DNA of 64,000 nucleotides from a virus (taxonomy: Duplodnaviria > Heunggongvirae > Uroviricota > Caudoviricetes). The stretch lies in the IMG/VR virus record IMGVR_UViG_3300001765_000297. The stretch is one strand, 5' to 3'. Position 1 is the first letter of the stretch. Every line of letters begins with the position of its first letter. Positions 895-43,569 of the stretch are shown here, piece by piece. The position numbers and the translations under genes were made by a program. Below the pieces are notes generated by a model that was not told where the DNA came from, did not search any database, and saw only the letters and a program-made list of their open reading frames with translations.

Positions 895-1548
895 ATGAAA
901 AAATATAATTTATCTCGAATAATGAAAACTGCATGGCAGATATACAGGGCAGTTGGTATGGACAATATTACATTTGGCGAAGCCTTAAAACAAAGTTGGG
1001 CAAAGTGTAAAGAGTTACCAAGTTTTGAGCAGATATACAAAGATAACTATAAAGCAGTATTAAACTATATTAGGTTCAAATCCTCTAATTTAGGCACAGA
1101 GAATGCAGAAGAATTGTGTAACGACATATTTTTAAGGTTCAAAGACAATATGTATAAATACGATGGCAGAGCCTCTGCAAGGACATTGCTATTCACTTAT
1201 GCTAACAATGGAATTATTGACCATTTCAGAGGGAAAAACGTAGGTAAGACTAGTTGTATGTCTGATTTTGCAGATGATAATGGCAAAGACTTTTTTCAGA
1301 TTGCCGATAGTAATTTTGCCAATGCACTAGTTGAAAATAACGAATTGTCGGAAAAGATTACTAAGAGTTTCAATGTACTGAAACCAAAGTACAAAGAGGT
1401 AGCTAGATTGTTCTTTGTAGAGGAATTGCAGTACACAGAGATTGCAGAAATTCTAGAGATACCTTTGGGAAGTGTTAAGGGTATGATATTCAGAGTTAGA
1501 GAAATGCTACAAGGCGAATTGAAACCAATGTATAATGCAATGTACTAA
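895..1548 (+). CDS. sigma-70 family (ECF-like, regions 2 and 4 only) RNA polymerase sigma factor
   Basis: region 2 (AEELCNDIFLRF...ARTLLFTYANNGIIDHFR) and region 4 HTH (EVARLFFVEELQYTEIAEILEIPLGSVKGMIFRVREML). Confidence 0.8.
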   Translation: MKKYNLSRIMKTAWQIYRAVGMDNITFGEALKQSWAKCKELPSFEQIYKDNYKAVLNYIRFKSSNLGTENAEELCNDIFLRFKDNMYKYDGRASARTLLFTYANNGIIDHFRGKNVGKTSCMSDFADDNGKDFFQIADSNFANALVENNELSEKITKSFNVLKPKYKEVARLFFVEELQYTEIAEILEIPLGSVKGMIFRVREMLQGELKPMYNAMY

Positions 1549-11305: not shown

Positions 11306-11329
11306 TGTCCATAACCAAACTCATATAAC

Positions 11330-12107: not shown

Positions 12108-12125
12108 ACCCAACTATCAATTAAA

Positions 12126-12167: not shown

Positions 12168-12191
12168 CTAATGTACACTAAAACATATGAT

Positions 12192-12380: not shown

Positions 12381-12430
12381 CAATTAATGTCCGGCATTCG
12401 TATAATGTACATAACTAATACATAAATATT

Positions 12431-12634
12431 ATGGAAGACTTAACGTATGACAATGATATCCGAGGCGATTATGCCTTATTCATTGATGCAAAACATTTTC
12501 TTGACGAATGGGAACTAGATGATGAAACCAAAAAACTGGTAGGTTCTAAACTCACATTCTTCCGGGTTATCCAAGATGGTGAACAAGGTAATCACGGTTG
12601 GATTGAGAATGGTGAAATAATTCAATGGGGATAA
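12431..12634 (+). CDS. hypothetical protein
   Basis: ORF with promoter 12378-12410. Confidence 0.5.
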   Translation: MEDLTYDNDIRGDYALFIDAKHFLDEWELDDETKKLVGSKLTFFRVIQDGEQGNHGWIENGEIIQWG

Positions 12635-12656
12635 TACTAACATAATAATTATATCA

Positions 12657-12860
12657 ATGTTAAAACCAGTAAGAAAAAACGTAAGTGCTGAAACATTAAA
12701 GTATAATATCTTTATATGTCAAAAGGAAATTGATGATGCTCGGCAAATTGTTAAGGATGCCTATAAGGAAATCCGTAAAACTATAAAAGAGACTGAAAAA
12801 ATAATTACCAAACAACGCCATTATAAAGAATTGTTAAAGCAATGTAACAATCACCGGTGA
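12657..12860 (+). CDS. hypothetical basic protein
   Basis: ORF, no own promoter seen. Confidence 0.4.
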   Translation: MLKPVRKNVSAETLKYNIFICQKEIDDARQIVKDAYKEIRKTIKETEKIITKQRHYKELLKQCNNHR

Positions 12861-12899
12861 TTTTGCGTATAATAAGTATTAACCACAAATACATATATT

Positions 12900-13592
12900 A
12901 TGAAAACTAGAGAAGAATTAATCGATGCAGTTATTGCTGAACTTAAAGCAGACATCCTTTCAGGTGACGTAACAGTACTGGAAGAAATCCTAGGTTTTGT
13001 TGAGAAAGACAAACTCGTTGAGTCATTACCAGAAGAACGCTGGTCAGAATTCCGGACCTCTTCAGATTACTTCAGCATCAAAGCAACTGGTTTCAATGAA
13101 GTTATTCAGAGGGAAGAAATTCAAATCCATTGTGGAGAGAATGGAAACCTGATGATTTATAAAACCCCGGAAGGATTTGTTGTTGATGCTTATGATGCTA
13201 ATGGCGAGAACATAGACACTATGGCAATCTGGGAAGACGGTATCAATCCACTTGTTGAGGGTGAAGATTGTATAAAGGATGATGAAGGCAACTGTGCTTT
13301 CTGTGGTCAGAAATGTTGGGAAGGCGAAATGTGTGACGAACAACAGGGTGATGGTTTCCAAGAACCCACTTGTTTCAGTCCTGCTGAACTCCGGGAATTT
13401 ATTGAAGAATGGGGGCAAACTCATCATGAAATCTGTGCCGAACTCGAATATTGGGAAAACGGTAATGACACACAAGACCTACTAATGGTCGACTACTTCT
13501 GGCTTGAACCTATGAATGTATGGCTGCCAAAGCTATCATCAATGTACACAGAAAGACAGGAAGCAATTGCGAAATTCCTGAGATTAGGATAA
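12900..13592 (+). CDS. hypothetical acidic protein (230 aa)
   Basis: ORF with promoter 12844-12880. Confidence 0.6.
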   Translation: MKTREELIDAVIAELKADILSGDVTVLEEILGFVEKDKLVESLPEERWSEFRTSSDYFSIKATGFNEVIQREEIQIHCGENGNLMIYKTPEGFVVDAYDANGENIDTMAIWEDGINPLVEGEDCIKDDEGNCAFCGQKCWEGEMCDEQQGDGFQEPTCFSPAELREFIEEWGQTHHEICAELEYWENGNDTQDLLMVDYFWLEPMNVWLPKLSSMYTERQEAIAKFLRLG

Positions 13593-13680
13593 TCAATGTC
13601 CGATATTAAATCCCTCTGTAACATTACAGGGGGATTTTTCGTATAAGCAATGTACATAATAATAACCAATATATAAAGAT

Positions 13681-13962
13681 ATGAAAACATCATTAGTAAT
13701 ACCAATGCCTAACGAGGTTAATACCTTGGATGATGTACGGAAATTCTTTACAGACCTGAAAGCTGCGGACTATATCTTTCATCCCGATGATGATTTCACC
13801 GAGTACAGCAATACCAATATTAATGATGGTAAGCTGCTGAATGTTATAATGCAAAGATGTTGGGTAATATGTGAAGACCAATGTACAGGTACTGATGATA
13901 TTTATACAATTGCTATAAATATTCAGTATCCAGAAAACACACCAATAGGATATTTACTGTAA
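13681..13962 (+). CDS. hypothetical protein
   Basis: ORF with promoter in hairpin 13605-13650. Confidence 0.5.
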   Translation: MKTSLVIPMPNEVNTLDDVRKFFTDLKAADYIFHPDDDFTEYSNTNINDGKLLNVIMQRCWVICEDQCTGTDDIYTIAINIQYPENTPIGYLL

Positions 13963-14009
13963 CATTTACAGGGGAATTTTCGTACAACACTCATAAAAAA
14001 ATAAATATT

Positions 14010-14300
14010 ATGGCAGCTAAAAAATCTCAGAGTCTAAGAGAAAAACTCACAGACTCAATAATGAAAAACAAGTATGGTGATGATGACCCAAAGTACGACC
14101 AGGATAACAGGAATTTCCTGAACACTCTTTCAATCCTTGAATTGGAGCGTATGTGTGAAGAGGAATTCGATGTTGATGGTGAGGACGATGAAGATGAAGA
14201 CGATGAAAGTGATTTTGGTGATGAACTTAATGGTGAATTCTTTGACCCACTTGATGATGAATATAATGCACATGAAAGTAATTTCGATGACGAACTGTAA
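14010..14300 (+). CDS. highly acidic small protein (candidate DNA-mimic/anti-restriction type)
   Basis: 96 aa, long D/E runs (GEDDEDEDDESDFGDE..). Confidence 0.5.
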   Translation: MAAKKSQSLREKLTDSIMKNKYGDDDPKYDQDNRNFLNTLSILELERMCEEEFDVDGEDDEDEDDESDFGDELNGEFFDPLDDEYNAHESNFDDEL

Positions 14301-14358
14301 CCTTTGTTGCAGTTCTTCGTATAATTGTTATAATTAATATTCACTAATACATATCACG

Positions 14359-14649
14359 ATGGAAGATTTTAAAGTAAAGCACACGATAACTGATAGGCAA
14401 GCAATTGTCAAAGCATTATGCTTACCTTCGTCAATACCTGATGGGTTCAAACTTAAGCCGCTTAAACCAATTGGGGTGTCGAAATTCAAAGGCGATAATA
14501 TGCCTTCCAATTGGAGTGTTAATACCAAATTTACAATTGGTTCAGAATATCCACTTTATGACGATGAAAACGGTTTAATATCGGTGGGTAATGATGGAGT
14601 TGGTTACAAGGTTATTGGTACTGCTTGGACTAAAATAAAATGGATTTAA
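14359..14649 (+). CDS. hypothetical protein
   Basis: ORF with promoter 14298-14340. Confidence 0.5.
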   Translation: MEDFKVKHTITDRQAIVKALCLPSSIPDGFKLKPLKPIGVSKFKGDNMPSNWSVNTKFTIGSEYPLYDDENGLISVGNDGVGYKVIGTAWTKIKWI

Positions 14650-14705
14650 TTCCGTAACCCTTTTTATCTATTCATCATATAACCATCATAACTAATACAT
14701 ATAAC

Positions 14706-15461
14706 ATGAAAGACTTTAATTTTAATAGTATTGACTGGTCAGAGTTGAGAAACCAGAAGAGAATGTTACTTGAAACCATTAATAATGATGCTGTTGACCC
14801 TGAGCATAAGGAAGGTCTGGAAGGTATCTTGAACCTTATTGACAGCCTACAAGACCATGCTGTGGATGAATTGGGAATTCCCGAAATGAATGTATATGAT
14901 TTCGAAGCCGAGGATGAACGTGAGAAAGAAACTCCCGAAGAAACCTTTGCCCGTGAGAATGCCCAGATTATTTTCCAAATGCGTATTGAAGGCGAAGGTC
15001 TTTATGTGGATGATGAAATGTCAAAGGAATTCATTGAAGGCATTGTTGATGATGAACAACACCGGTCAGCGATTAAGAATGCTATTAGGTTAAGAATTCT
15101 GGAAGAAGTTCAGGATTTCCCAAATGATTTCCAAAGGGATGCAGATGGTAAGCTAACCTATGATTACACCATGTATGATTATGGTTATGAAATTGAAAGC
15201 TATTGCAGGGAAATATTCTACAATGGAAAAACAAAAGAAGTATGGGTGTGCCGTGAATGTGGAAGTGACAGCGTTGAAAGTCATGCACTGGTTAATCCGA
15301 ATTGCCCAACCGATAATCCTACGGTAATTAACCTTGATGATTGTGAAAGTAATTATTGTTTCGATTGCCAGAAGAAAGTTGTTGTGGAAAAAAGAATAAT
15401 CCCAGTTCTTGCAATAAATGCCGAAATCGGAACAACTGATGGACACATCACAAAGAGATAA
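14706..15461 (+). CDS. hypothetical acidic protein with C-terminal Cys cluster (zinc-binding?)
   Basis: ORF with variant promoter (CATATAAC) 14653-14690. Confidence 0.6.
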   Translation: MKDFNFNSIDWSELRNQKRMLLETINNDAVDPEHKEGLEGILNLIDSLQDHAVDELGIPEMNVYDFEAEDEREKETPEETFARENAQIIFQMRIEGEGLYVDDEMSKEFIEGIVDDEQHRSAIKNAIRLRILEEVQDFPNDFQRDADGKLTYDYTMYDYGYEIESYCREIFYNGKTKEVWVCRECGSDSVESHALVNPNCPTDNPTVINLDDCESNYCFDCQKKVVVEKRIIPVLAINAEIGTTDGHITKR

Positions 15462-15502
15462 TAATATTGGATAGCAATGTCCGATTGGAGGGGAGCACTT
15501 AA

Positions 15503-15543
15503 AAACCCTGTTTCTGAGTATTTATCGGAAACAGGGTTTTTTT
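15503..15543 (+). terminator. intrinsic terminator AAACCCTGTTTC..GAAACAGGGTTT + T7 abutting ATG 15544
   Basis: 12-bp stem + T-tract. Confidence 0.7.
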
Positions 15544-15906
15544 ATGAAACGAATTAGCCAAGACATACTAAACGAATTAGTATATAATATCAAACGAATT
15601 AAATTTAAAAACATCATTCAAGACCTGAAACTAGAATATTGCGAAGACATTGATGGCGACTATATCTACCTGGTTTTGATTAACATAAAGAAATCCCAAA
15701 GACGTAATGGATATGGAGCTGCAGTACTCTCCGAAATTATTAAAGCTGCAGACAATCATGGTGTCAGAATTAGATTGTGGGCAACAAATGTATATGGTTC
15801 AGATTTAAAGCAGCTCTATGGTTTCTACAGGAAACATGGATTTGTTTTCGTGGATAATGATAGTGAGGGGCACATGGTTTACTATCCGGATAAAACTAAA
15901 AATTAA
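15544..15906 (+). CDS. GNAT-family N-acetyltransferase (minimal, 120 aa)
   Basis: motif A RRNGYGAAVLSEIIKAA..G, LYGFYRKHGF. Confidence 0.6.
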   Translation: MKRISQDILNELVYNIKRIKFKNIIQDLKLEYCEDIDGDYIYLVLINIKKSQRRNGYGAAVLSEIIKAADNHGVRIRLWATNVYGSDLKQLYGFYRKHGFVFVDNDSEGHMVYYPDKTKN

Positions 15907-15928
15907 ATTAAAAATACTTTGTTTATTT

Positions 15929-15958
15929 TGTAACATTTACTAGCTTTGCTTCGTATAA
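15929..15958 (+). promoter_or_regulatory. phage promoter TGTAAC-N17-CGTATAA driving ORF-free GC-rich transcript
   Basis: motif. Confidence 0.6.
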
Positions 15959-15965
15959 CATTCAT

Positions 15966-16470
15966 AAAACATCTGGGGCGAAACACAAAGTAGTGAGGTA
16001 GTCACGGAACAAGTCCTAGGTTTGTAACCTAGGCGAACTTGAAACAAACGTTCTTTAAGATATTGAAAGAGGTACGTCACAGGTGACGTTTATAATTGGC
16101 TGGTTCAATGCCCGTGTCCTCTTTCTTCGATGCAAATAGCCAACCGTTAATGGGGTCTCCGAAAGGAGCAGGAGCAAACGCAGTTATATTAGGATAGAGT
16201 AATTCCCTTTTACGAGGTGAGCCAGCTTAACGAACTGGATACAGCGTTGAAACTCTGACGGCAATGGTTGCACAGAGGCGTAAGCCTTGCGCCTACAAGG
16301 ACTGTGTAAGATTAATTTCCCCTGGGTTTCCGGAAACTCACATCGTGCAGAATCGCAAGGATGTCTGGGGGAAATTTTCCAAGCATGCTATAGGTCTCCT
16401 AGAGAGACATAAAATATTTCCTTATTGTCTAGTTTTCATTTTATTTGTATTATGTGTGTTCATAGTGATT
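15966..16470 (+). ncRNA. candidate large structured ncRNA (identity unknown)
   Basis: promoter at 5' end, terminator 16475-16507 at 3' end, locally high GC, perfect hairpins (CCTAGGTT-tgta-AACCTAGG; CGTCAC-ag-GTGACG; CTCC-GAAA-GGAG), no credible ORF. Confidence 0.4.
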
Positions 16471-16474
16471 AGTT

Positions 16475-16536
16475 CCCCCGGATTGTGGTTAGTCCGGGGG
16501 TTTTTTTGTAACCATTTCTCAAGCAGCTTCGTATAA
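16475..16536 (+). promoter_or_regulatory. terminator CCCCCGGA..TCCGGGGG + T7 followed immediately by promoter TGTAAC(16507-16512)-N17-CGTATAA(16530-16536)
   Basis: hairpin + T-tract + motif. Confidence 0.65.
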
Positions 16537-16557
16537 TACTAAACAAATTTAAATCTT

Positions 16558-16923
16558 ATGAGAGATAGCTGGTTAACTCCAAATGGAGAAGTAATTGAGG
16601 TTGGAAATTTTCAACACAATAGATATGCACAGAATCTTCTGGAAGAAGAATTGGGGTTTATGGGAATGATGGAATATATGGATAAAGAAAATATATCCTC
16701 TCCTTACGAAGTTCTACATAAACGAGGATGGGTACGTATTAAATATAATACCTCATATTTGCCTAGAATTGAAATACTTGGTGGCTGTATCGATTTAACA
16801 AAACAAGCTAAAAATACGATAGACCCGGCAATGAATGAAAAACAATTGAAGGTAGCTAAAAAGCTATGCGAAGATTGTAATACAGAATTTCATGTAGCTA
16901 TTAATGATAAGCGTTTCTGGTAA
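16558..16923 (+). CDS. hypothetical protein
   Basis: ORF with promoter. Confidence 0.5.
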   Translation: MRDSWLTPNGEVIEVGNFQHNRYAQNLLEEELGFMGMMEYMDKENISSPYEVLHKRGWVRIKYNTSYLPRIEILGGCIDLTKQAKNTIDPAMNEKQLKVAKKLCEDCNTEFHVAINDKRFW

Positions 16924-16939
16924 ATTAAATCAAATTAAT

Positions 16940-16969
16940 TGTAACCCTACCACCGGTAATTCCGTATAA
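16940..16969 (+). promoter_or_regulatory. phage promoter TGTAAC-N17-CGTATAA driving ORF-free transcript
   Basis: motif. Confidence 0.55.
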
Positions 16970-16975
16970 CATACA

Positions 16976-17075
16976 TACGAACCACCTAAACGTAACTGGA
17001 ACTTACCAGAGACCGAGTAGACTCCACCCTACGCAATATTCTGCTTATTCAGAATCTTTCTAAATAGCAATATTT
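16976..17075 (+). ncRNA. candidate small RNA, family copy 3 (hairpin CTGG-aactta-CCAG, motif GAGTAGACTCCACCCTACG 17015-17033, hairpin ATTCTG-cttatt-CAGAAT)
   Basis: promoter-driven, no ORF. Confidence 0.3.
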
Positions 17076-17104
17076 TGTAACCTTGTTTCCCGGAATTCGT
17101 ATCA
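17076..17104 (+). promoter_or_regulatory. phage promoter TGTAAC-N16-CGTATCA (tandem with 17189)
   Basis: motif. Confidence 0.45.
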
Positions 17105-17188
17105 TGGGTAAATTTAACAGGCTCGGTAATACACCTTATTATATATACAACATTCGTTTTTGGCAATTCAAAAATAGTTAAGTATATT

Positions 17189-17217
17189 TGTAACAAACCC
17201 TGAAACATTTCGTATAA
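17189..17217 (+). promoter_or_regulatory. phage promoter TGTAAC-N16-CGTATAA for rIIA
   Basis: motif. Confidence 0.55.
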
Positions 17218-17251
17218 GCATCATAATTTAACCACATAAAAATTCAAGACT

Positions 17252-19543
17252 ATGGAAATCAATTTAAAGAAATTAAGTGACCAAGCAATTGAAGGCACAA
17301 CTGGCTCAAACAAAATGAGACTATCAGAGGACAGCGCATCAATGGTATTCCAGATGTTCACTAAGAGCATTTACAGTAATCCAATTGGTACGGTTGTAAG
17401 AGAAATAACCTCTAACTGCTTTGACAGCCACATTGAGGCAAAGGTGAATTCACCGGTAATAATTCGTAAGAACATCGACAAAGACACTGGAAACCTTTCC
17501 ATTTCATTTATTGACTTTGGTGTCGGTATGTCTCCTGACAGGGTAAACAATATCTATGGCGTTTACTTCGCAAGTACTAAACGAGTAGACAATACTCAAA
17601 TTGGTGGCTTTGGTATTGGCGGCAAAACTCCATTGGCTTATAAAAGGTCAACAGGTCATGGACAAGGCGAATACGATAACAGCTTCAACCTTATTACAAA
17701 CCATGATGGTATGAAATACTTCTACCTGATATATGAAGGTCCTGAAAGTCCTGTTATCTCCCTGTTACATAGTGAACCTACTACTGACCGTAATGGAACA
17801 GAAGTACGCATCCCTGTATTACCAAATGATGTTTCGAAATTCGAGAACGAAATGGTAAGACAATTGTATTACTTCGAGAATGTTATCTTTGATGGCTTCG
17901 ACAAAGAAAGTCTTACCAACAATTACCAAATCATCAGAGCAAAGTCTTTCTTGTTCAGAGGAAACGAGTACAGCAGCTATGCTCACGTATGCTTAGGCAG
18001 GGTTGCATATCCAATTGATTACAGCGTATTGGGATTGTCCAGTGGCGATTACAGCTTCCCTATTGCCCTGCGTTTGGAAATCGGAGACATTAATGTAACT
18101 GCAAACCGTGAAGCACTGGATTACAGCGAGAACACTATCAAAGTACTTAAAAAACAACTCGAAGCTGCTAAGAAAGAGATTACAGAACGTCTTGTAAAAC
18201 AGTACGATAACATTGTTACCTTGGAGGATTACTTTAAGGCTAAGAATAAATTCGGTACACTATTCTTTGAGAATGGCAAGACTATTAACTGCAAAGACAT
18301 CATCAAAATGAAAGATGTTGACTTTTCAAACTTCAAATTCAGTTTCACAAAGATGCCGGATGATGTTCAATTGTTTAACTTCTTCTTCAATGTACGTCTT
18401 GTAGGTAAGAAGTTTGGAAAATACAACCGCAGATATGGTAGTAGTAGTGGACAGTTTAAAGGCGGGTATGATGAATTGCTTGGTGCAAAGAACCTTTACT
18501 TTCACGAAGGATTGTTTGAACGTAAGATTGTAAAACAGGCATGGTTGAAAACCAAACATGAAAGGTATTATGTTATCAGTCGCAAGAATTTACTCGGTAA
18601 TAATGTACAGACTATGGTAGATGTTGCAGAACTGTTCAATGTACACGATACTATTAGTGCCGTAGATGCCAATGGTAATGTACAGCCAACCAAGTATATG
18701 CAGAGTCTTTTAGAAATGCAGGATGAATATTTTGGATTGGTTGAAGATAATTGTATTGACTATAACAGTCTTGAAGTACCTGCTGACTTTATTGAAAGTC
18801 GTAGGGTTGAGAAACTAAGTACTGAAATCCGTAACACTACAATCCCTGCAAAGGTAATGGGTAGCTATCGCACAAGGATTAAACTTGATACAATGTTCAA
18901 ACTCAATATACCTATCTTCTACGGAACAAAGGAAGATGAAGCTAAATTGGAAACCGGATATACTGTTTACCGTATGCTCTTTGGTGATGCTCTAACAGTT
19001 AGAAGCTATGATGAATACCGTCATGAATTCAAATTGAATGATAAGAAAGGTGTGGTATTCATTTTGATTGCACAGAACAACATTAAGTACATGGAGTACT
19101 GCAAGAATGCAAATCATATCAGCACCCTGTATTGGAAGATGTTGCACAGGAAAGCCAAGAAGGTTATGAATTACTATCAGGCACAAAGCCTTGTAACGAA
19201 ATTCAACGAGATAAATTCATTGTACAGGGCATCTGAATTTAAAAACATCTGTCCTACATGGGCAAAGAAAATCCAGACACTCAACATCTTGATGACAGGT
19301 TATGCCAAATCGCCTTTCGAATATAATGGTGGAAGCAATTCAAAATACTATTGTTCATTGTACTTTCCAGTTAATAATGTTGAATTGACAGGTGAACAGC
19401 AAAAAATGAACGTGCTAATTGATGAAGTAAAAGAAATGGAAGTACTGAATGCAGAGGTAATGCAACACATTCAACATCCAAGTTATTTCAGTCTTGCAAA
19501 ACCAAGTTACTGGAACCTGCTTAGAAGCATAATGGTCTACTAA
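17252..19543 (+). CDS. rIIA: rIIA-like protein with N-terminal GHKL (HATPase_c) ATPase domain
   Basis: VVREITSNCFDSH / FIDFGVGMS / GGFGIGGKTP parallel T4 rIIA VVRELITNMIDAH / FGPGMS / GGFGLGSKSP; size 763 aa. Confidence 0.75.
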   Translation: MEINLKKLSDQAIEGTTGSNKMRLSEDSASMVFQMFTKSIYSNPIGTVVREITSNCFDSHIEAKVNSPVIIRKNIDKDTGNLSISFIDFGVGMSPDRVNNIYGVYFASTKRVDNTQIGGFGIGGKTPLAYKRSTGHGQGEYDNSFNLITNHDGMKYFYLIYEGPESPVISLLHSEPTTDRNGTEVRIPVLPNDVSKFENEMVRQLYYFENVIFDGFDKESLTNNYQIIRAKSFLFRGNEYSSYAHVCLGRVAYPIDYSVLGLSSGDYSFPIALRLEIGDINVTANREALDYSENTIKVLKKQLEAAKKEITERLVKQYDNIVTLEDYFKAKNKFGTLFFENGKTINCKDIIKMKDVDFSNFKFSFTKMPDDVQLFNFFFNVRLVGKKFGKYNRRYGSSSGQFKGGYDELLGAKNLYFHEGLFERKIVKQAWLKTKHERYYVISRKNLLGNNVQTMVDVAELFNVHDTISAVDANGNVQPTKYMQSLLEMQDEYFGLVEDNCIDYNSLEVPADFIESRRVEKLSTEIRNTTIPAKVMGSYRTRIKLDTMFKLNIPIFYGTKEDEAKLETGYTVYRMLFGDALTVRSYDEYRHEFKLNDKKGVVFILIAQNNIKYMEYCKNANHISTLYWKMLHRKAKKVMNYYQAQSLVTKFNEINSLYRASEFKNICPTWAKKIQTLNILMTGYAKSPFEYNGGSNSKYYCSLYFPVNNVELTGEQQKMNVLIDEVKEMEVLNAEVMQHIQHPSYFSLAKPSYWNLLRSIMVY

Positions 19544-19646: not shown

Positions 19647-20810
19647 ATGAAAAACATTCAGACAATTAAAATCGGAAACACCGTTAATATAAGTATTGAT
19701 GGTAAATTACATCAGAAGAATTGTGGCAGTCCAGAAGAAGCACGAGAACTTTATGGTATCGTTCTCCGGGCAAAATCTGACCCAAGTGATGCCAATTTGA
19801 AAGCTATTCGAATGTATCTCAACGAGAAAATCAGGGTAGCATTCCTGACCGGTCTTGAAAGTGATGTTGAAACCGGAGAAGTATTCATTGCCGGATTTAA
19901 CACTCCAATTCCCACAACCCTTGTTGAGGTTCTGAAAGAATACCATGAGAACCAATACCCTGTCGATGCAGTTATTAACTTCTGGAAGCTGCTTATGCTA
20001 AACCCTGATAAGAGGGTAAGAACTTCGGCTTTCGACTTCATTCATACCCATGACTTCGTTCTGACTGATACAGGGTATATGGTAGTCTACAAGGCAGTTG
20101 CATATAAAGAACAGGTAGATAATGACCTTTTGGAATTCGTTACCAATCAGTATCTTCACGTGAAGAAAGACTGGAAATGCAGTGCCAACAAGTATGTTGT
20201 TTATCGTGATGAAGATGGTAATTTAGCTTTAACAAAAGCAGTTACAGCAGATGGCTGGGATGATGATAAAGATGTTGAAATCCTTGGCAAACTCGGAGAC
20301 CTGAATGCAAGTCTTGATAAACTTGCTGAAACATCATCAACTGTTTATACCGACAAACACAGCCATACTATGGAAATTCGTCTTGGTGTGCCTGTTGTAA
20401 TGCCTCGCAAAGATTGCGATAGCGACCCTGCAATTGATTGCTCATACGGACTTCATGTTGGTGCAACCAATTACGTGAAACGCTTCGGTTCAAATGGTGA
20501 TGCTGTATTGGTTTGCCTTGTTAACCCTGCTCACATTGTTGCTGTACCGGATTACGACCATAGCAAAATGAGGGTTGCAGAATACTTCCCGATTGCTAAG
20601 GCAACCTATACCAATGGCGAAATCGACATCATTGAACAGGCGTACTTCGAATCTGATTACAGAACCTACGAAGATAAGGACTTGGAGAAGATGTTGGCTA
20701 AAATCAAAAAACAGGAAAAGCCAATTGAGAAAGCAATCAATGCCGAGGAAGAAGAACGACCAATGTCCGAACTCCTAAAGATTATTGAAAGTAGAATGAT
20801 TGATATCTAA
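19647..20810 (+). CDS. rIIB: rIIB-like protein
   Basis: CSYGLHVGATNYVKRFGSNGDAVLVCLVNPAHIVAVPDYDHSKMRVAEY parallels T4 rIIB CSRGLHVCSKSYIRHFGSSTDRVVKVKVHPRDVVSIPIDYNDAKMRTCQY; follows rIIA. Confidence 0.75.
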   Translation: MKNIQTIKIGNTVNISIDGKLHQKNCGSPEEARELYGIVLRAKSDPSDANLKAIRMYLNEKIRVAFLTGLESDVETGEVFIAGFNTPIPTTLVEVLKEYHENQYPVDAVINFWKLLMLNPDKRVRTSAFDFIHTHDFVLTDTGYMVVYKAVAYKEQVDNDLLEFVTNQYLHVKKDWKCSANKYVVYRDEDGNLALTKAVTADGWDDDKDVEILGKLGDLNASLDKLAETSSTVYTDKHSHTMEIRLGVPVVMPRKDCDSDPAIDCSYGLHVGATNYVKRFGSNGDAVLVCLVNPAHIVAVPDYDHSKMRVAEYFPIAKATYTNGEIDIIEQAYFESDYRTYEDKDLEKMLAKIKKQEKPIEKAINAEEEERPMSELLKIIESRMIDI

Positions 20811-22792: not shown

Positions 22793-23046
22793 GCAGAAAA
22801 ACAATTTACCAAGACTCTAGACTTACCTATGTATCAGGTGTCGACCATATGCTGGGACCATTCATGCAACTCTATGATAAAGACCTAGAAAAAGAAACCA
22901 CAGAAGGTGAAGGTCTGATAATGGATTGGTCATTGCAATGGGGTTATGAAATCAATTTCACCGGTGAATCCTCGGAACTACCACCCGCTAAGATTGCAAG
23001 GAATTACATAAAAGAACATGGTGAAAAAGACATAGATAAGCAATGA
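22789..23046 (+). CDS. hypothetical protein
   Basis: ORF, ATGA overlap both sides. Confidence 0.45.
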   Translation: MSRKTIYQDSRLTYVSGVDHMLGPFMQLYDKDLEKETTEGEGLIMDWSLQWGYEINFTGESSELPPAKIARNYIKEHGEKDIDKQ

Positions 23047-23936
23047 ATGTACTGAGTTTATTTGATGGTATCTCTACCGGAAGACTGGCTTTAGATAAAG
23101 CTGGAATACATGTTGATAATTACTATGCATCGGAAGTCGATAAATATTGTACGGGAGTTTCTAAATATAACTACCCAACCATTGTACAACTTGGTGGCGT
23201 TGAGAATGTCCGAGCAGCTGAACTACCCAAAATAGATTTACTAATAGGTGGAAGTCCCTGCACAGGATTCTCTAGTTCCGGCAAAGGACTTAACTTCAAT
23301 GACCCCCAAAGTAAATTGTTCTTCGAGTTCGTTAGAATATTAAATGAATGCAAACCCACTTATTTTCTTTTCGAGAATGTCCGCATGAAAAAAGAATGGC
23401 AGGACATCATAAGCAGCTACCTCAATGTACAACCTATTGAAATAGATTCTCAACTATTGTCCGCTCAACGCAGAAGACGAATGTACTGGACAAATATAAA
23501 TAATATTGTACAACCTATTGATAAAAATATTACCTTTGGGAATGTACGTGAGCATAATGTCCAGAAACATTATTATACTCCCAAGGCACTGCAGTGGTTT
23601 AGTAAACAACATGTAATCACCGGTAAGCCTTTGAGAATCTGGATAGATAATTTTAAAACTCAGACCATCGAATCAAATATGTATAGAAAATATGGTAGAC
23701 AAAATTTCTTCGGCATTCAAGATACTCAGGGACTTAGATTCGTTACACCCAGAGAATGTGAAAGACTGCAAACCCTGCCGGATGATTATACATTATTTAT
23801 GAATGATGCTAATAAAGAAAATATTAGAATAAGTGATACCCAACGCTATAAAATGATTGGAAACGCCTGGACGCTAGATGTGATAATACATATACTGAAA
23901 CATCTGCCAAGCATAAAAATAATTCAGTGCCCCTAA
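23043..23936 (+). CDS. DNA (cytosine-5)-methyltransferase
   Basis: motifs I LSLFDGISTG, IV GGSPCTGFS, VI FLFENV, VIII QRRRRMYW, X MIGNAWTLDVI. Confidence 0.85.
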   Translation: MNVLSLFDGISTGRLALDKAGIHVDNYYASEVDKYCTGVSKYNYPTIVQLGGVENVRAAELPKIDLLIGGSPCTGFSSSGKGLNFNDPQSKLFFEFVRILNECKPTYFLFENVRMKKEWQDIISSYLNVQPIEIDSQLLSAQRRRRMYWTNINNIVQPIDKNITFGNVREHNVQKHYYTPKALQWFSKQHVITGKPLRIWIDNFKTQTIESNMYRKYGRQNFFGIQDTQGLRFVTPRECERLQTLPDDYTLFMNDANKENIRISDTQRYKMIGNAWTLDVIIHILKHLPSIKIIQCP

Positions 23937-25830: not shown

Positions 25831-26112
25831 TTAACGCTTTGTTTCTGCTATTAAATCTCCATTATGATAAATCTTTCTGTCTGTTTTTGTTGTTATAAGT
25901 ATTAACCCATTAAAATTAAATGTATATCCTTCACATAACTTATCCGAAAATGAGATAATATCACATCCCTTTTCAATAGGAGGACAGGCAATCATGTTGA
26001 TTAATTTACCATCTTTAAATATCTGTATGGTATTAGGATTCTTTTTATCGAATCTTATATTATTTTCCACATCTACATTTTTAATTAAACCGACCATTTC
26101 ACACGGTCCCAT
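25831..26112 (-). CDS. hypothetical protein
   Basis: ORF. Confidence 0.45.
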   Translation of the reverse strand: MGPCEMVGLIKNVDVENNIRFDKKNPNTIQIFKDGKLINMIACPPIEKGCDIISFSDKLCEGYTFNFNGLILITTKTDRKIYHNGDLIAETKR

Positions 26113-26438
26113 AATGTTTGTGTTGCGTTTATCATTCTATTTAATTTCTCTATATGTGCTGGTTGTTTTTTCTTAATTTTTTCCAAATGAATAATAAATC
26201 CATTTGGGGTTAGATTTTTCTTTTCATCGTTACAATTTTTACAACAAACGACTTTTAATCTTCCATTCATTGATTTGGGAAAGAAATGGTCTGCAGTTCT
26301 TCTATATGAGCCAACGGGAATACTTACACCGCAATACCAACATCTATCGCCACCTAGTTTCTTTCCTATGTAAACGCTTAGTTGTCCATAAGTCTCACTA
26401 TTTGTAGTTTGGGGTCCGGTAATTGTAGTTTCTTCCAT
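26085..26438 (-). CDS. HNH endonuclease
   Basis: CWYCG..DHFFPKSMNG..CCKNCNDEKKN. Confidence 0.6.
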   Translation of the reverse strand: MEETTITGPQTTNSETYGQLSVYIGKKLGGDRCWYCGVSIPVGSYRRTADHFFPKSMNGRLKVVCCKNCNDEKKNLTPNGFIIHLEKIKKKQPAHIEKLNRMINATQTLWDRVKWSV

Positions 26439-29743: not shown

Positions 29744-29763
29744 AATTTCTATTTAATTATCAT

Positions 29764-29791
29764 TATATAATACTTTAGTCGAAATGTTACA
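29764..29791 (-). promoter_or_regulatory. phage promoter variant (minus) TTATATA-N15-GTTACA
   Basis: motif variant. Confidence 0.4.
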
Positions 29792-30902: not shown

Positions 30903-31718
30903 TTATTTTTTTATTTGTTTCAACAAATCTTTAACCTTATCAAGGTGTTTGCTATCCATTGGTTTACCACAGGTATTCATTTTGATAAAGGTACTGTAGA
31001 TGGCTTCCAAGCTAGGATTTTCAAGATATCCATAGGTTATGCTATGGTTGAAAAACCTATGTCTATCACTACCACTGAGTTCTGAGAAGAACTTACCTTT
31101 GTATTTATACCGGTCTTCGTAGAATTCGCAGAGTGCAGTTAATCTTTGTTTACCATCAATAATTTCATAATAACGTCCGGGAGTACTTTCATTTCTCTGA
31201 ACAAATACAAATTTACCGATTTCGATATTATTAAAAATTGAGTCAATGAGTGCTACCTTATCTTTGAGTTCCCATACGTGCTCTCTCTGATACTCAACAT
31301 TAAAATCAACTCCACCCCAAGGACTATATACCATATGGATTAGGCTATCTATTCCGGAGTTAAGTTGTCTGATATAAAATCTTTCTTCAATGGCAAAACT
31401 AGTGTCTCTTTTACCTTTATATTTATTAAGGTCTAACCATGTCATAGCAGTCCAAGTGCTATCTCCATTAAGGTTTCCTTCTTTATCATACCTAAGACTT
31501 TCAACTGTATAGTATAAGCCATTCTCATGTACTTCACGCACATAAACTTCTTTGTGTGAACCCCACAATACTCTTTCATTAAGACTGAAAGACCTTGTAG
31601 GATTTAATGGCATTATACCATAATCAATCATTCTCCGGATTTCATTTATTGCGGAATTAACTGCTTTCAGTCGTATTTCTTCGCTGCTGAGTACTTTATC
31701 TTTTATTTTCTTTGCCAT
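30903..31718 (-). CDS. DUF262 (ParB-like nuclease / GmrSD N-terminal domain) protein
   Basis: YQREHVWELKDKVALIDSIFNNIEIGKFVFV ... IIDGKQRLTAL = DUF262 signature incl. DGQQR-type motif. Confidence 0.55.
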   Translation of the reverse strand: MAKKIKDKVLSSEEIRLKAVNSAINEIRRMIDYGIMPLNPTRSFSLNERVLWGSHKEVYVREVHENGLYYTVESLRYDKEGNLNGDSTWTAMTWLDLNKYKGKRDTSFAIEERFYIRQLNSGIDSLIHMVYSPWGGVDFNVEYQREHVWELKDKVALIDSIFNNIEIGKFVFVQRNESTPGRYYEIIDGKQRLTALCEFYEDRYKYKGKFFSELSGSDRHRFFNHSITYGYLENPSLEAIYSTFIKMNTCGKPMDSKHLDKVKDLLKQIKK

Positions 31719-31750
31719 TATACGGAATATTTATATACCATTATACGGAA

Positions 31751-31780
31751 AGGAATTCGTAAATGTTACAAAAATTATTT
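31751..31780 (-). promoter_or_regulatory. phage promoter (minus) TTATACG-N17-GTTACA; extra orphan TTATACG copy at 31728-31734
   Basis: motif. Confidence 0.5.
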
Positions 31781-32858: not shown

Positions 32859-33092
32859 TTATTCGATTTTATATCTAGTTATAACTTGTTCTGCTACAGG
32901 AAAAACAATAGTACCTTTAATTATAAGTGTTTGACCACCCCAATAGTTGGTATCGTTTTCTGATGGTAATTTATTTAATATACCCTCACTATAACTACCT
33001 TCCTCAAGTTCTTTGAGTAGTTGTTCTTTTGTCAGTTGCTCTACGATTGTATCGCCATCTGAATTTCTGATTGTAATATAATTATCTTTCAT
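32859..33092 (-). CDS. hypothetical protein
   Basis: ORF. Confidence 0.45.
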   Translation of the reverse strand: MKDNYITIRNSDGDTIVEQLTKEQLLKELEEGSYSEGILNKLPSENDTNYWGGQTLIIKGTIVFPVAEQVITRYKIE

Positions 33093-33142
33093 GTTATATA
33101 GTTTTAATCTTTTATGTTATATAGTTTAGCTACTCCCATTAA

Positions 33143-33718: not shown

Positions 33719-34279
33719 TTACTGATTCAATATTAAACTTTTGTGCATTTCGGCATTTGCTTTATTTCTTGCTTCAAGAAAGTCAAGAAAATGTTTATCA
33801 AAACTAACGCTATTTATTTTAAATTCCAAAAGTTTTATATTATTTTTTACATATTCACTAGCATCAAGACTTTGGGCATAATTATGAAGAAGTATTGAAT
33901 CAGTAGACATGCAATAAATTTCTAGAACCGGATGCTTAATGGTGAACATCATTAAATCTGCGGTTACGTTTATTTTTATAAAGTCTTTTTCATTCTCCTT
34001 CACATCATTCACATATTTATTTAATTTTGTGGTATCGTTGAAATGATATACAAAATTTCTATAATCTTGTTTTTCAACGCTGTATTTGGCATACCATTCA
34101 TATGTAACCATTACACCATCTTGGGAACGAGTGGTTGTAGTAAAGGTTAATTCCCTTGTTGTTGGGGAATTATCCAGTATTAGTTGGGGTTTTTCTTTGT
34201 CAGATTGAAATACTATCAATATTTTAGCCATCGATAATCCAATTACGATTCCAAATAGAATTGAAGTTAAAATTTTCAT
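33719..34279 (-). CDS. secreted/membrane-anchored protein (N-terminal signal/TM)
   Basis: MKILTSILFGIVIGLSMAKILIVF. Confidence 0.5.
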   Translation of the reverse strand: MKILTSILFGIVIGLSMAKILIVFQSDKEKPQLILDNSPTTRELTFTTTTRSQDGVMVTYEWYAKYSVEKQDYRNFVYHFNDTTKLNKYVNDVKENEKDFIKINVTADLMMFTIKHPVLEIYCMSTDSILLHNYAQSLDASEYVKNNIKLLEFKINSVSFDKHFLDFLEARNKANAEMHKSLILNQ

Positions 34280-40198: not shown

Positions 40199-41077
40199 AA
40201 AAAAATGAATAATTTTCAGTATTTATATGAAAATCTGTGTATGAAATCGAATAATACCAAACAAATGCTTTTCGAAATGATGAGCAAAATCGATAAAACA
40301 TTTAGGTATCAAATAAATGAATCTGAGAGTAATATATTACCTATTGTCTTTATAAAAAGGGGAAAGATAAAAGTTGGAATGGATAAAGTAATGGGTGAAA
40401 GAGAATATGTGAAACCAAACATTAGCATTGAAAATTCTATTATCGATTCAAAATCAATAGACAGTAAAAACTTTACGTATAGATGGAGAGTGACTTTTAT
40501 CGATACCGATAATAATGAATTAAAATATAGCGACTATATTAGGATGGTTGGTAATGGTAATTATGTTGCTAACATAAGCTATAATTCAAAACAAAAAAGT
40601 AGTTTTAATAAACTGAAACTTAGGGATATATCGGTAGATATTATAACTTTCAATAAAGGGGATGAAAAAAATCCGGTAGATGTAACCAATATTAATACAT
40701 ATCAATTTAATAATCATGATGATAGTGGTTATATAAAATTAGATGATAATGTTTCTAGGGTTTATAAAAATAATGTGAGCAAAACGGATGATGATGCTTC
40801 ATATAATAGGGGGGATAAGAAAGTTTTTAGGAGGGGTGGTAAAGATTTAAATAAAATTGATGATAATTATTTTAATGATTGGGAAAAGAAATTTATTCAG
40901 GTTGGTAAATATAAAGGGAAATCATATGGTGAGATAATGAATACTGATAAGCAATATTTTGGCTGGTATTTGCAAAACGTTACTTATTATGAAATGTCAT
41001 CAGAAACCAAATATGATATTCCCACAAAATTTAATTATAACCTATACGAATACTTAAAAAGTAAAGGACTTTTTTAA
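40178..41077 (+). CDS. N/K-rich low-complexity protein with C-terminal ExoX-C/DUF3820-like motif (alt start 40205)
   Basis: only plus-strand gene inside minus block; FIQVGKYKGKSYGEIMNTDKQYFGWYLQN resembles FGKHKGKTLxEV..YLxWL. Confidence 0.45.
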   Translation: MYLNIVTKKMNNFQYLYENLCMKSNNTKQMLFEMMSKIDKTFRYQINESESNILPIVFIKRGKIKVGMDKVMGEREYVKPNISIENSIIDSKSIDSKNFTYRWRVTFIDTDNNELKYSDYIRMVGNGNYVANISYNSKQKSSFNKLKLRDISVDIITFNKGDEKNPVDVTNINTYQFNNHDDSGYIKLDDNVSRVYKNNVSKTDDDASYNRGDKKVFRRGGKDLNKIDDNYFNDWEKKFIQVGKYKGKSYGEIMNTDKQYFGWYLQNVTYYEMSSETKYDIPTKFNYNLYEYLKSKGLF

Positions 41078-43569
41078 AGAGCACTAATCTTATTGAAGAT
41101 TTTCGTCTGAGGATTAACCTGTTTAATTCCCTTCATGATTGGTTCGTAAACTTCCTCATACATATATTTTACTTCCTCTTCTTTTTCAATTCCAATTCTT
41201 ACTTTAAAGTCTTCCTTTTCCGGTTTAAAGAAAGCATTGTAACTAACGCTATATGAATAGTTCTTATTTGTCCAAGGACTTTTGAATCTTAAATCTTCGA
41301 CCTCAATATAAATATAAATATAGCCACCGGAATAACTATCGGCTTTAATGTTATTGCTTATTCTTACTTCAGAAATTCTGTATTCATTTCCACCCTGTCC
41401 TACCATCCATTGTAAATCCGCTTCATCTATTTCAGGTTTTTGTGGAACACTAGCTGCATTATCTTTAACAGTAGCATTACGTGGATATGGTTTTTTATCA
41501 TGCGAAGTATTATTAAAACGTATGATTAGATTAAGCAAATCCAATTCTTTTTGTGTTAGTATTGCTTCATTTGGTGGAACAGGTCTATCTAGATACTGTG
41601 TTAAATATATGCTATCGTCTTTTCCCAAATATTTATAGTATTTAAATTCCGGTGAACTTCCGGTATAATATTCAAACTCACCTTCGTCATCAAGATAAAT
41701 TCTAAATGTTTTCCACTCACCATCCTCCGACATTCCTGGCAAGATAATACTATTTATAGTACTTCCTAAGAAAGGTCTGCCGATAAATTTTTGATATGTA
41801 GTATCGTATTTATTTTTCTTTCTATCATCAAGTATTTGTTGAGCCATGCCAATTTTATTCATCAATAAATCTTCTTTTGCTTGGTTATTTTCCCATCGCA
41901 TAACTCTTTTATATTCTTCATAAATTTCGTCCTTTTTGGCTTCAAGTTGTTTATCATCTAAAGCATTAAGTTCTGCAAATTCATTTGGGAATTTTTTCTC
42001 ATAATAGTCAGTACCCTCATTCAAATTATTTATGCCATTATTATTACTATTATCACCTTTAATTAGACTAGCTAATTCTTGACTAGCATTCATATCAACA
42101 ACAATATTTGAAATATTTAGGTCTTTAGTATATGGTAGTATCTGTAATTTCTTTTCAGGATGTAAGTAAAATTCTTTACTTCTAAAGTTTCTTAACCAAT
42201 CACGTTGTTCGCCATCACAATCAATATAGATATTATTTGGGGTTTTAACTCCGAAGTGTTCGACCTGACCATCGGTGCTATTATATATTACAAAAACTGG
42301 ATAACCGTGAACAATATTTAATGCATAGGCAAGAATTGCACATCCACCTGCACACCAAGTGTTACCATTGGCATCAGAACTATCGAGAATTGCATATGCC
42401 GCATCGGAGTTAAGTATTTGTTTTAAAGAATTATCAGATTTTCCCTCATTTAATTCATTCTTGGGTTTTTTTATGCTCTTAGTATTGAAAACTATGAAAT
42501 CATTATATTCATTGCCATGCGGTAGTATGACTCCATCATAACCCATGCCCCTAAGTTGACCTAAGCCATACTTTTCATATTCATCCCAACCTGCAGGATT
42601 ATTTAAGACAATATCCCTAGTCATGATATACTTATTACCATTACCACCATGCTCACCTGACTTAATGCTATCAATGCTATCGGTGAACCAAATAATTCCT
42701 TGTGTGGCTTTCTTTAAATCAAAGTTATTGAATTCCTGGTTTGTGCCATGATAAACACGGTACGTAGTTTCGTTAAGAACATCTTCATTAATAAAATTAG
42801 CGGTTCGCTTATCATATTTACTTCCAATTAAACTTTGTAAGTCTTCACGTGCAGTGTTTAAATCATATTCTCCATTTAAAATGTCAACCAAATATGATTT
42901 ACTGTATTGCCAACAATTATCTAAATCTTCCTCAGTAAAATTATATTCAGTGTTTTCGTTGAGTCTTTTTAAAATATTCTTTTTCACAACATTTTCATCG
43001 GTATATTCCGGATATGGGTCATAACCATTTTTAATTATAAAAATAATATCTGGATTGTATTCCATAGAATATCCACTTGGAAGATTCTTCTTTATATATT
43101 CATTATATAATTTGGCTCTTCTTTCATCATCCTCATAATCTTCATCAGCTTTAACTGGTTCGATAAGTACCATATCGGGATTTTGTCTCTGTGTAAAATC
43201 TTGAAGTATTGCAACAACAGTAGCCATTACTTTAAACATTCTACCTTTATTTATTGCGTCATCAATATCACGACCATCAACATGAAATCCGGCATGCCAT
43301 TCATTATGGTCAGCATTTTCAACATCAACTTTTTCATTTTTATCCATTTCTACCCTATAATCATCATTATCTTCGGTAAAGAATTGGTAAATATAAAATG
43401 GGGTAGCTTGTAATAATTTAAATGGATACTGCTTTTGATTAGCTTCTCCAATTTCGTTAAGATTTGGTTTGGGAGTTCTTATACCTAAGAACTTATCGAA
43501 TTTTTCATCGGTTTCTCGGATTAATTCTTTTAATCCCTGTTCGATTTCATTTAAGATTTTCGTACTCAT
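41074..43569 (-). CDS. large multidomain (polyvalent-type) protein with H-Y-E ADP-ribosyltransferase-like signature
   Basis: 831 aa; YHGT (H), GYDGVIL (Y), GNEYNDFIVF (E; cf. PARP YNEYIVY). Confidence 0.6.
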   Translation of the reverse strand: MSTKILNEIEQGLKELIRETDEKFDKFLGIRTPKPNLNEIGEANQKQYPFKLLQATPFYIYQFFTEDNDDYRVEMDKNEKVDVENADHNEWHAGFHVDGRDIDDAINKGRMFKVMATVVAILQDFTQRQNPDMVLIEPVKADEDYEDDERRAKLYNEYIKKNLPSGYSMEYNPDIIFIIKNGYDPYPEYTDENVVKKNILKRLNENTEYNFTEEDLDNCWQYSKSYLVDILNGEYDLNTAREDLQSLIGSKYDKRTANFINEDVLNETTYRVYHGTNQEFNNFDLKKATQGIIWFTDSIDSIKSGEHGGNGNKYIMTRDIVLNNPAGWDEYEKYGLGQLRGMGYDGVILPHGNEYNDFIVFNTKSIKKPKNELNEGKSDNSLKQILNSDAAYAILDSSDANGNTWCAGGCAILAYALNIVHGYPVFVIYNSTDGQVEHFGVKTPNNIYIDCDGEQRDWLRNFRSKEFYLHPEKKLQILPYTKDLNISNIVVDMNASQELASLIKGDNSNNNGINNLNEGTDYYEKKFPNEFAELNALDDKQLEAKKDEIYEEYKRVMRWENNQAKEDLLMNKIGMAQQILDDRKKNKYDTTYQKFIGRPFLGSTINSIILPGMSEDGEWKTFRIYLDDEGEFEYYTGSSPEFKYYKYLGKDDSIYLTQYLDRPVPPNEAILTQKELDLLNLIIRFNNTSHDKKPYPRNATVKDNAASVPQKPEIDEADLQWMVGQGGNEYRISEVRISNNIKADSYSGGYIYIYIEVEDLRFKSPWTNKNYSYSVSYNAFFKPEKEDFKVRIGIEKEEEVKYMYEEVYEPIMKGIKQVNPQTKIFNKISAL

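Follow-up and report, generated by a model that had tools for sequence, protein, structure and literature searches.

A phage protein family joining a small beta-barrel to a nuclease-free DUF262 domain

RESULTS AND DISCUSSION

A two-domain DUF262 protein without a nuclease half

We analysed a gene in a 64 000-nt stretch of tailed-phage DNA (IMG/VR record IMGVR_UViG_3300001765_000297; 'the window' below means this whole stretch) and found that it is a real gene for a phage protein, which combines a small Tudor/SH3-like barrel with the GmrSD-type nucleotide-binding 'sensor' half, known from restriction enzymes, and lacks the DNA-cutting half. Proteins of this kind, here called barrel-DUF262 proteins, are a large, conserved and uncharacterised phage family. 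The DUF262 domain is minimal and compact yet complete, with all nucleotide-binding motifs conserved, and the gene, which has no conserved partner gene, acts as a self-contained unit under strong constraint. The identical protein is recorded on contigs of several samples, and the exact sequence also occurs on the 91-kb metagenome contig MIS_10000060 (JGI 3300002026; NCBI whole-genome shotgun project JFJP01). The gene and the parts of its product are as follows:

30903..31718, minus strand: coding sequence of 271 aa with ATG start and stop codon at 30903-30905, from the list of open reading frames (ORFs); two-domain nuclease-free DUF262 protein
31611..31718, minus strand: residues 1-36, basic N-terminal tail (MAKK...) and long helix (residues 12-32, predicted at pLDDT 83-94)
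31383..31610, minus strand: residues 37-112, predicted five-stranded small beta-barrel (Tudor/SH3/PWWP/KOW-like) and linker, family-specific
30906..31382, minus strand: residues 113-271, compact DUF262/GmrSD_N (ParB/Srx-fold) domain of nucleoside triphosphatase (NTPase) type
31272..31292, minus strand: Motif I, YQREHVW (residues 143-149; QRxxxW), aligned to QREFVW of BrxU
31239..31250, minus strand: LIDS (residues 157-160), counterpart of the GmrSD RLFDS nucleotide-binding and dimer-switch motif, aligned to RLFDS of BrxU
31143..31157, minus strand: Motif II, DGKQR (residues 188-192; DGxQR, the motif for phosphate binding and hydrolysis of nucleoside triphosphates, NTPs), aligned to DGQQR of BrxU
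30957..30989, minus strand: Motif III, FIKMNTCGKPM (residues 244-254; FxxxN), aligned to FIRMNSGG of BrxU

The first-pass annotation of the window, made from the sequence alone, had recognised a DUF262 signature in peptides that correspond to residues 143-151, 157-173 and 186-196, and three profile collections agree with it. Pfam assigns residues 142-236 to GmrSD_N/DUF262 (PF03235; E-value 9.7e-18, 65.4 bits against a cutoff of 33.2), PHROG 1583 (function not known) covers residues 112-268 (E 2.9e-30), and among PADLOC models Menshen NsnA scores best (E 1.7e-17), matched at profile positions 41-192 of 385 only. The Pfam scan of the 271-aa protein gave no credible family besides PF03235 and no DUF1524/HNH, and a search of NCBIfam gave zero matches. 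The 120 best homologues likewise carry PF03235 alone and no nuclease part, so that the description as a stand-alone DUF262 protein of the ParB/Srx fold without a DUF1524/HNH half is borne out. Profile, motifs and ParB/Srx fold together place the protein in the DUF262/GmrSD_N domain family.

The motifs were aligned to BrxU by a profile search of the PDB; QRxxxW, DGxQR and FxxxN and their nucleotide roles are defined in PMC12065111, with roles in nucleotide binding and hydrolysis also described in PMC4619093, and the role of the RLFDS-like motif and of BrxU S42 is described in PMC8565348. In an alignment of 32 full-length close homologues (52-74% identity) we found the following residues to be invariant: Y143, Q144, R145, H147, V148 and W149 of Motif I; L157 and S160 of LIDS; the whole of DGKQR (D188 to R192); and F244, K246, N248, T249, G251, P253 and M254 of Motif III. 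Among 106 distant members at 26-43% identity R145 and W149 are still invariant, and Y143, Q144, DGKQR, F244, N248 and G251 are conserved in at least 90%. The DGQQR-like motif, whose conservation in homologues the first-pass annotation had proposed to check, is thus retained. Sequence identity to the solved host enzymes is only 17-18%.

The N-terminal barrel defines the family

About 112-115 aa at the N-terminus lie outside the DUF262 match, as judged from Pfam, PHROG and an AlphaFold2 (AF2) model of the protein. This model (mean predicted local distance difference test score, pLDDT, 85.6; predicted template modelling score, pTM, 0.60; three of five models good, two poor) predicts three elements: a helix (residues 12-32), a barrel of five strands (49-93) and an alpha/beta domain (117-270). 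The predicted barrel has the expected five-strand topology and matches solved barrels structurally, including the UvrD1 Tudor domain and the NusG/Spt5 KOW domain; Pfam gives no match for residues 1-112, so that we do not assign the region to Tudor, KOW, CarD/TRCF-RID or a similar family, or to a known ligand. M1 and K3 are nearly invariant among the 32 close homologues, and the tail and helix may serve in dimerisation. The tail and helix are basic (median isoelectric point 8.8) and the barrel is slightly acidic (5.8), which does not favour non-specific DNA binding by the barrel.

The first-pass annotation had taken this region for a novel extension. Instead, it is a conserved module by which the family can be recognised. 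In a search of 1.84 billion cluster representatives with a profile restricted to residues 1-114, we obtained at least 150 protein clusters, nearly all of 255-300 aa and with the match at the N-terminus. When 106 of these matches were scanned with Pfam, GmrSD_N was found in 106/106 and other families in 0/106; thus, among the scanned matches, the barrel does not occur in other architectures. It appears restricted to the barrel plus DUF262 arrangement, which marks a distinct two-domain family. The barrel is the signature of this family, which had not been described as such before (residues 1-112 being without a Pfam match).

Distribution and gene neighbourhood of the family

Members are widespread. 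Metagenomes contain more than 120 full-length homologues at 52-74% identity, and at least 367 IMG/VR loci encode relatives, many of them on contigs of 100-390 kb. Full-length members at 32-37% identity are found in genomes of Peribacillus, Paenibacillus, Brevibacillus, Lachnospiraceae and Bacteroidota; these Firmicutes and Bacteroidota copies adjoin integrases and lie in prophages. A Foldseek search of BFVD returned a full-length structural match in Tenacibaculum phage pT24, together with many stand-alone DUF262 proteins of phages and giant viruses, and a tblastn search found the DUF262 part encoded in 262 phage genome records, mostly labelled 'hypothetical protein'. In contrast to the first-pass reading, a stand-alone DUF262 protein in a phage is therefore not unusual; such proteins are common in phages and already visible in public annotation. 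In the literature searched, neither stand-alone DUF262 proteins of phages nor the barrel-DUF262 architecture turned out to be the subject of a study: papers that pair DUF262 with phages treat host systems (including the PARIS, sponge-cyanophage and HTH1 prophage papers), and a large survey of the ParB-CTPase fold was confined to PF02195, which leaves DUF262 outside its coverage.

To compare neighbours, the ORFs of 103 loci from 26 lineages were clustered. Apart from the DUF262 gene itself (103 loci), no cluster spans more than 3 of the 26 lineages. Of the other ORFs within the 12.8 kb surrounding the window gene, just two have homologues in other loci, both in a single locus (L007), whose DUF262 protein, like that of L010, is 66-69% identical to the window protein. 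Among 142 neighbouring ORFs from 25 lineages, a Pfam census found RlaP, SprT-like, RNA ligase, HAD_SAK_2, R2K ATP-grasp and Tpt1 to recur, as do integrases, methyltransferases and a second DUF262 protein. In several lineages this second protein is NsnA-like and lies no more than 4.5 kb from the barrel-DUF262 gene; some neighbours match the PADLOC NsnA model strongly (best E 1.9e-40).

Several loci show arrangements of their own. In L008, L009 and other loci at 50-58% identity a HAD_SAK_2 gene often follows the barrel-DUF262 gene, and loci of the L008/L009 type have RNA-repair-type surroundings (Rv2179c-like exonuclease, RlaP, R2K ATP-grasp, RNA/DNA ligase, Tpt1, SprT-like), which suggests a counter-defence or repair gene neighbourhood. 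In a large temperate lineage, proteins of 720-733 aa are encoded a few genes from the barrel-DUF262 gene; their N-terminus resembles sigma70 region 2, the central part is DUF262-like (HPLQR...W, DGKQR/DGLQR) and the C-terminus is long and helical, with Pfam scores below threshold:

L094, 10264-12465: protein of the 720-733-aa group
L054, 10555-12750: protein of the 720-733-aa group
L050, 10240-12402: protein of the 720-733-aa group

The phage around the gene

The window is viral, as first assumed: besides the relationship to 367 IMG/VR loci it contains rIIA-like and rIIB genes, and also RNA ligase, Dda-like helicase, DHFR, NUDIX and HD genes. Gene orientation switches at about 24-25 kb, with the rIIA-like and rIIB genes close by, and the DUF262 gene sits in a hypervariable arm of small accessory genes. 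Genes of the window that bear on its possible role are:

895..1548, plus strand: sigma factor resembling the extracytoplasmic function (ECF) type (Sigma70_r2, E 6e-7; Sigma70_r4_2, E 5e-9)
17252-19543, plus strand: rIIA-like gene, 763 aa, with a weak HATPase_c match
19647-20810, plus strand: rIIB gene
23043..23936, plus strand: C5 cytosine DNA methyltransferase (E 5.6e-41)
26085..26438, minus strand: HNH_5 protein of 117 aa (E 1.5e-6), 4.5 kb and about 14 genes downstream of the DUF262 gene

Given the C5 methyltransferase, the phage DNA is probably 5mC-methylated (5-methylcytosine) at some sites. The HNH_5 ORF is the sole His-Me-finger ORF of the window and has no homologue at other loci. A six-frame search with hidden Markov models found no second DUF262 gene in the window. 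Precomputed Pfam assignments, which cover about 73 kb of the 91-kb contig, contain neither DUF1524, for which the first-pass annotation had proposed a search elsewhere in the phage, nor ParA; no parS-like palindromic or repeated array was found in the 28.5-34.5 kb region around the gene. No capsid or terminase gene is recognisable in the same ~73 kb, and relatives lie on contigs of 148-355 kb, so that the 91-kb contig probably represents only part of a jumbo phage. A megablast search of 8 kb against 50 697 phage records gave no match, hence there is no close cultured relative among them. Of the immediate neighbours, neither the 83-aa nor the 216-aa ORF downstream is matched in PHROG or Pfam, and the 64-aa ORF matches PHROG 3474 only (function not known).

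Two further features of the window were recorded. An 831-aa ORF (41074-43569, minus strand) has a weak match to ART-PolyVal, the polyvalent-protein ADP-ribosyltransferase (E 9e-5, below cutoff), and one phage arm encodes two SPFH/Band_7-family proteins (33719-34279 and 53177-54349, both on the minus strand), the second at threshold level.

Comparison with known DUF262 and ParB-fold systems

In the comparison with the type IV enzymes GmrSD and BrxU (DUF262 plus DUF1524; PDB 7p9k), the phage protein matches only about 130 of the 580 residues of BrxU. The phage protein lacks the middle helical (ParBDB) domain and the DUF1524/HNH nuclease, has an additional N-terminal helix and Tudor-like barrel, and is encoded by a phage, whereas BrxU is encoded by the host. 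Compared with SspE, the phosphorothioate-sensing DUF262-DUF1524 protein (PDB 6jiv), it is likewise without the nuclease, and also without the SspE-M DNA-binding domain and sspABCD neighbours. With no nuclease in the protein or an adjacent gene and no ParBDB or SspE-M middle domain, it is not a member of the GmrSD/BrxU/SspE group. GmrS1 of the Escherichia coli ECOR17 GmrS1/GmrSD2 doublet and GmrS of E. coli CT596 are likewise nuclease-free DUF262 proteins; however, these are host or prophage defence components that need an adjacent nuclease-bearing partner, and the phage gene has none that is adjacent or conserved. The closest formal analogue is therefore a nuclease-less GmrS paralogue such as ECOR17 GmrS1, minus its linked partner.

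Menshen NsnA (ParB-DUF262 plus ParBDB, often with N-terminal sensor domains) shares the design of a variable N-terminal module in front of the ParB-DUF262 domain, but the phage protein has no sequence left for a ParBDB domain, and its neighbours show no NsnB- or NsnC-type PHROG or Pfam matches and are not conserved. Section 17 of PMC12065111, where families of N-terminal NsnA domains are named, does not list a Tudor/SH3-like barrel. PHROG 1583 and stand-alone proteins of large cultured phages represent nuclease-free DUF262 proteins as well, the latter in Krischvirus Phi1 (ORF187, 172 aa, without an N-terminal module), in Tunturiibacter phage Tunturi_5 (gp317, 276 aa) and in Tenacibaculum phage pT24 (A0A1B4XWJ3, 278 aa), of which the last aligns over its full length including the barrel. 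All three are annotated as hypothetical and are less than 40% identical to the window protein; having no known function, they give no mechanistic guidance.

Phage ParB176, which activates the thymine dioxygenase 5mYOX176 (PMC13229309), resembles the window protein as a phage-encoded protein of the ParB fold that shows no obvious DNA-binding domain and works in the absence of ParA and parS. It differs in belonging to PF02195, in having a C-terminal dimerisation domain and in always lying beside its 5mYOX partner; no TET/JBP-type gene was detected in the window. Nor is the protein a DndB/DpdB homologue, its motif being DGKQR rather than DGQHR, with no NCBIfam match and no dnd or dpd genes in the neighbourhood tables. 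Altogether, the window protein works most like the sensor half of GmrSD/BrxU/SspE/NsnA-type systems.

Possible mechanism and alternative explanations

Our tentative reading, which we regard as possible rather than probable, is that the protein is a self-contained, nuclease-free, NTP-driven switch that binds its target instead of cutting it. By analogy with BrxU, SspE and ParB, the DUF262 domain would bind and hydrolyse an NTP and thereby cycle between a self-associated and a free state; for BrxU an ATP-driven dimer-to-monomer cycle has been described (PMC8565348), and SspE and GmrSD are NTPase sensors of modified DNA (PMC12065111). The N-terminal barrel would supply the contact to the target, either DNA (possibly modified) or a conserved protein, and the output would be occupancy or occlusion of that target and not cleavage. 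The location in an accessory-gene arm here, and the vicinity of RNA-repair and counter-defence genes or prophage integrases in relatives, point to a role in phage-host or phage-phage conflict, which is most probably its function, e.g. by sensing or masking DNA from host immunity that senses modification. That phages of very different hosts share so conserved a protein, with its catalytic residues invariant, favours a universal target over a passive decoy matched to individual hosts. A more far-reaching version, in which we place little confidence, sees the family as phage-specific, effector-less sensors of DNA state: barrel and NTPase would jointly recognise a DNA modification or a conserved host factor and clamp it under NTP control. 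Large phages and prophages would in this way own a portable single-gene device, either for blinding the many host systems with DUF262 sensors (GmrSD/BrxU, SspE, Dazbog, Menshen) or for redirecting transcription in concert with phage sigma factors.

Several other explanations were weighed. The protein could be a decoy or dominant-negative inhibitor, as the first-pass annotation had already considered, which would mimic the DUF262 half of GmrSD/BrxU, SspE, Dazbog DzbA or Menshen NsnA and protect the phage genome by forming dead hetero-oligomers or by competing for the DNA ligand. In fold and motifs it corresponds to the host sensors, self-association and pairing of paralogues are known for DUF262 proteins (BrxU dimer; GmrS1 with GmrSD2), and the accessory-gene setting would suit an inhibitor; the probable 5mC methylation by the phage C5 methyltransferase fits as well, as phage DNA methylated at C5 appears to trigger Dazbog, a system with DUF262 in its first gene. 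However, the low identity to solved host enzymes, a barrel without counterpart in these enzymes and invariant catalytic motifs that a passive decoy does not need all speak against mimicry. In addition, the family keeps 52-74% identity across phages of many environments and reaches into Firmicutes and Bacteroidota prophages, and proteins of phages with almost no flanking genes in common are 66-74% identical, unlike host-matched, fast-evolving inhibitors, so we regard a decoy as unlikely. The second role proposed at the outset, a phage-borne weapon against modified DNA, is countered by the missing nuclease and by the absence of a co-inherited one. It could survive as a split type IV-like exclusion system, in which the DUF262 sensor detects foreign or modified DNA and activates a separate nuclease (the HNH_5 protein or one of the host) against DNA of competitor phages or of the host. 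GmrS and GmrD are separate proteins in some systems (PMC4619093) and GmrS1 depends on GmrSD2; an HNH_5 ORF is present downstream, temperate members lie beside an integrase, a typical place of prophage defence cargo, and a second, NsnA-like DUF262 protein is close by in several lineages. The ~73 kb covered nevertheless hold no DUF1524, the window holds no second DUF262 gene, the HNH_5 gene is about 14 genes off with other promoter-motif copies in between and is private to this locus, and no nuclease cluster co-occurs with the family across lineages; a split system thus seems rather improbable.

A comparably doubtful alternative is that the protein loads or activates a methyltransferase or other base-modifying enzyme on phage DNA in the manner of ParB176, which acts on 5mYOX176 with double-stranded DNA (PMC13229309). 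ParB-fold domains of phages are frequently fused to methyltransferases, an N6_N4 methyltransferase gene lies directly upstream in L008, in phage Phi1 a gene annotated as DNA methyltransferase precedes that of the minimal DUF262 protein by two genes, and methyltransferases are present both in the window and, several times, in the neighbourhood census. Yet the methyltransferase of the window is encoded at a distance of 7 kb, on the opposite strand and in the other transcription arm, methyltransferase or dioxygenase clusters are common to no more than a few of the 26 lineages, and the precedent is a PF02195 ParB and not a DUF262 protein; moreover, methyltransferases have a high background frequency in large phages, and the census counts carry no background control. 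We give still less weight to a transcription factor whose Tudor/KOW-like barrel docks on RNA polymerase or a phage sigma factor, with the DUF262 NTPase as a switch. This would agree with the likeness of the barrel to the UvrD1 Tudor and NusG/Spt5 KOW domains and with its acidic character, which is not that of a DNA-binding domain, as well as with the ECF-like sigma factor, the 39 copies of a matching-looking promoter motif (see below) and the 720-733-aa proteins with sigma70 region 2-like and DUF262-like parts; ATP-binding ParB-sigma70 fusions have been reported, and KorB and DndB are ParB-fold transcription regulators. But such structural likeness is generic to small barrels, both the sigma and the DUF262 assignment in the 720-733-aa proteins are below the Pfam thresholds, and nothing links the window protein directly to RNA polymerase. 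A ParB-type partition protein acting on parS in a phage-plasmid, finally, is contradicted by the data and hardly credible: the ParB/Srx fold and the temperate elements of some relatives would allow it, but PF02195, a helix-turn-helix (HTH) and a C-terminal dimerisation domain were not found with Pfam or NCBIfam, ParA and a parS-like array are missing from the regions searched, and the window with its rIIA/rIIB genes looks like a virulent large phage.

To our knowledge, in all characterised cases DUF262 provides an anti-phage nuclease with its sensing and NTPase half. Here, in contrast, a phage-borne DUF262 domain is stripped of the nuclease and joined to a private barrel, in a family that is strongly conserved and moves as a single gene. 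If this family blocks or subverts modification-sensing immunity, it would represent a broadly distributed principle of counter-defence and provide a tool to probe DUF262 systems; should it instead work with RNA polymerase or with enzymes that modify DNA, the recently recognised set of ParB-fold switches would reach further than chromosome segregation. As a target for study the family is clearly delimited and easily expressed, with culturable sources in Tenacibaculum phage pT24 and in prophages of Peribacillus, Paenibacillus and Brevibacillus.

Promoter motif and duplicated start region

Upstream of the gene, the first-pass annotation had placed a promoter of its own with a duplicated -10 element. 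The following features were found:

31740..31770, minus strand: putative promoter site, TGTAACA (31770..31764), a 16-nt gap and CGTATAAT (31747..31740)
31715..31750, minus strand: direct duplication of TTCCGTATAATGG, copies at 31750..31738 and 31727..31715 (exact 13-mer matches)
2453-17220, plus strand, and 25364-57825, minus strand: ranges spanned by the copies of the promoter motif

The promoter-like site stands: GTAACA-18-TATAAT at 31769..31740 (minus strand) scores 10/12 in a consensus scan, and exact GTAACA-N-TATAAT copies number 11 against 0.24 expected. The site is one of 39 copies of a TGTAAC-N16-18-CGTATAA motif (scanned as TAAC-N16-18-CGTA[TA]A; shuffled sequences: mean 1.06, maximum 5), 27 on the plus strand (2.4-17.2 kb) and 12 on the minus strand (25-58 kb), all 39 co-oriented with the genes. 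This motif is probably the main promoter class of the phage. Its AAC...CGT core resembles ECF-sigma promoters, and the ECF-like sigma factor is a candidate reader of the motif; equally possible are early promoters of the host sigma70 with an unusual -35 element. Since no further motif copy occurs downstream before 29790..29762, the DUF262 gene and three small ORFs probably form a short unit, with the DUF262 gene in first place. Motif copies in the plus-strand arm are followed by a conserved CATAACCAA(A/T)ACAT element. At the copies at 7287, 7775 and 10011 (plus strand) and 45728 and 53119 (minus strand) only 5-7 nt separate the -10 element from the ATG, which suggests leaderless or near-leaderless mRNAs.

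The duplication is also real, as an exact 13-nt repeat within a 21-nt unit with a 23-nt period (repeat family D12, 86% over 21 nt), but it does not provide a second functional -10 element. The second TTCCGTATAATGG copy contains the ATG start codon of the DUF262 gene, and its TATAAT was rejected as a second promoter since it overlaps the ATG and has no -35 partner; the repeat is thus a duplicated start region and not a pair of promoters. A 7-codon mini-ORF (31741..31718) begins in the first copy, and its stop overlaps the DUF262 start as TAATG. Three duplications with a 23-nt period occur in the window (591-633, 31707-31750 and 33084-33127), two of which copy a start-codon region, namely that of the DUF262 gene and that of a 77-aa ORF (32859..33092), where the upstream copy reads ATA instead of ATG.

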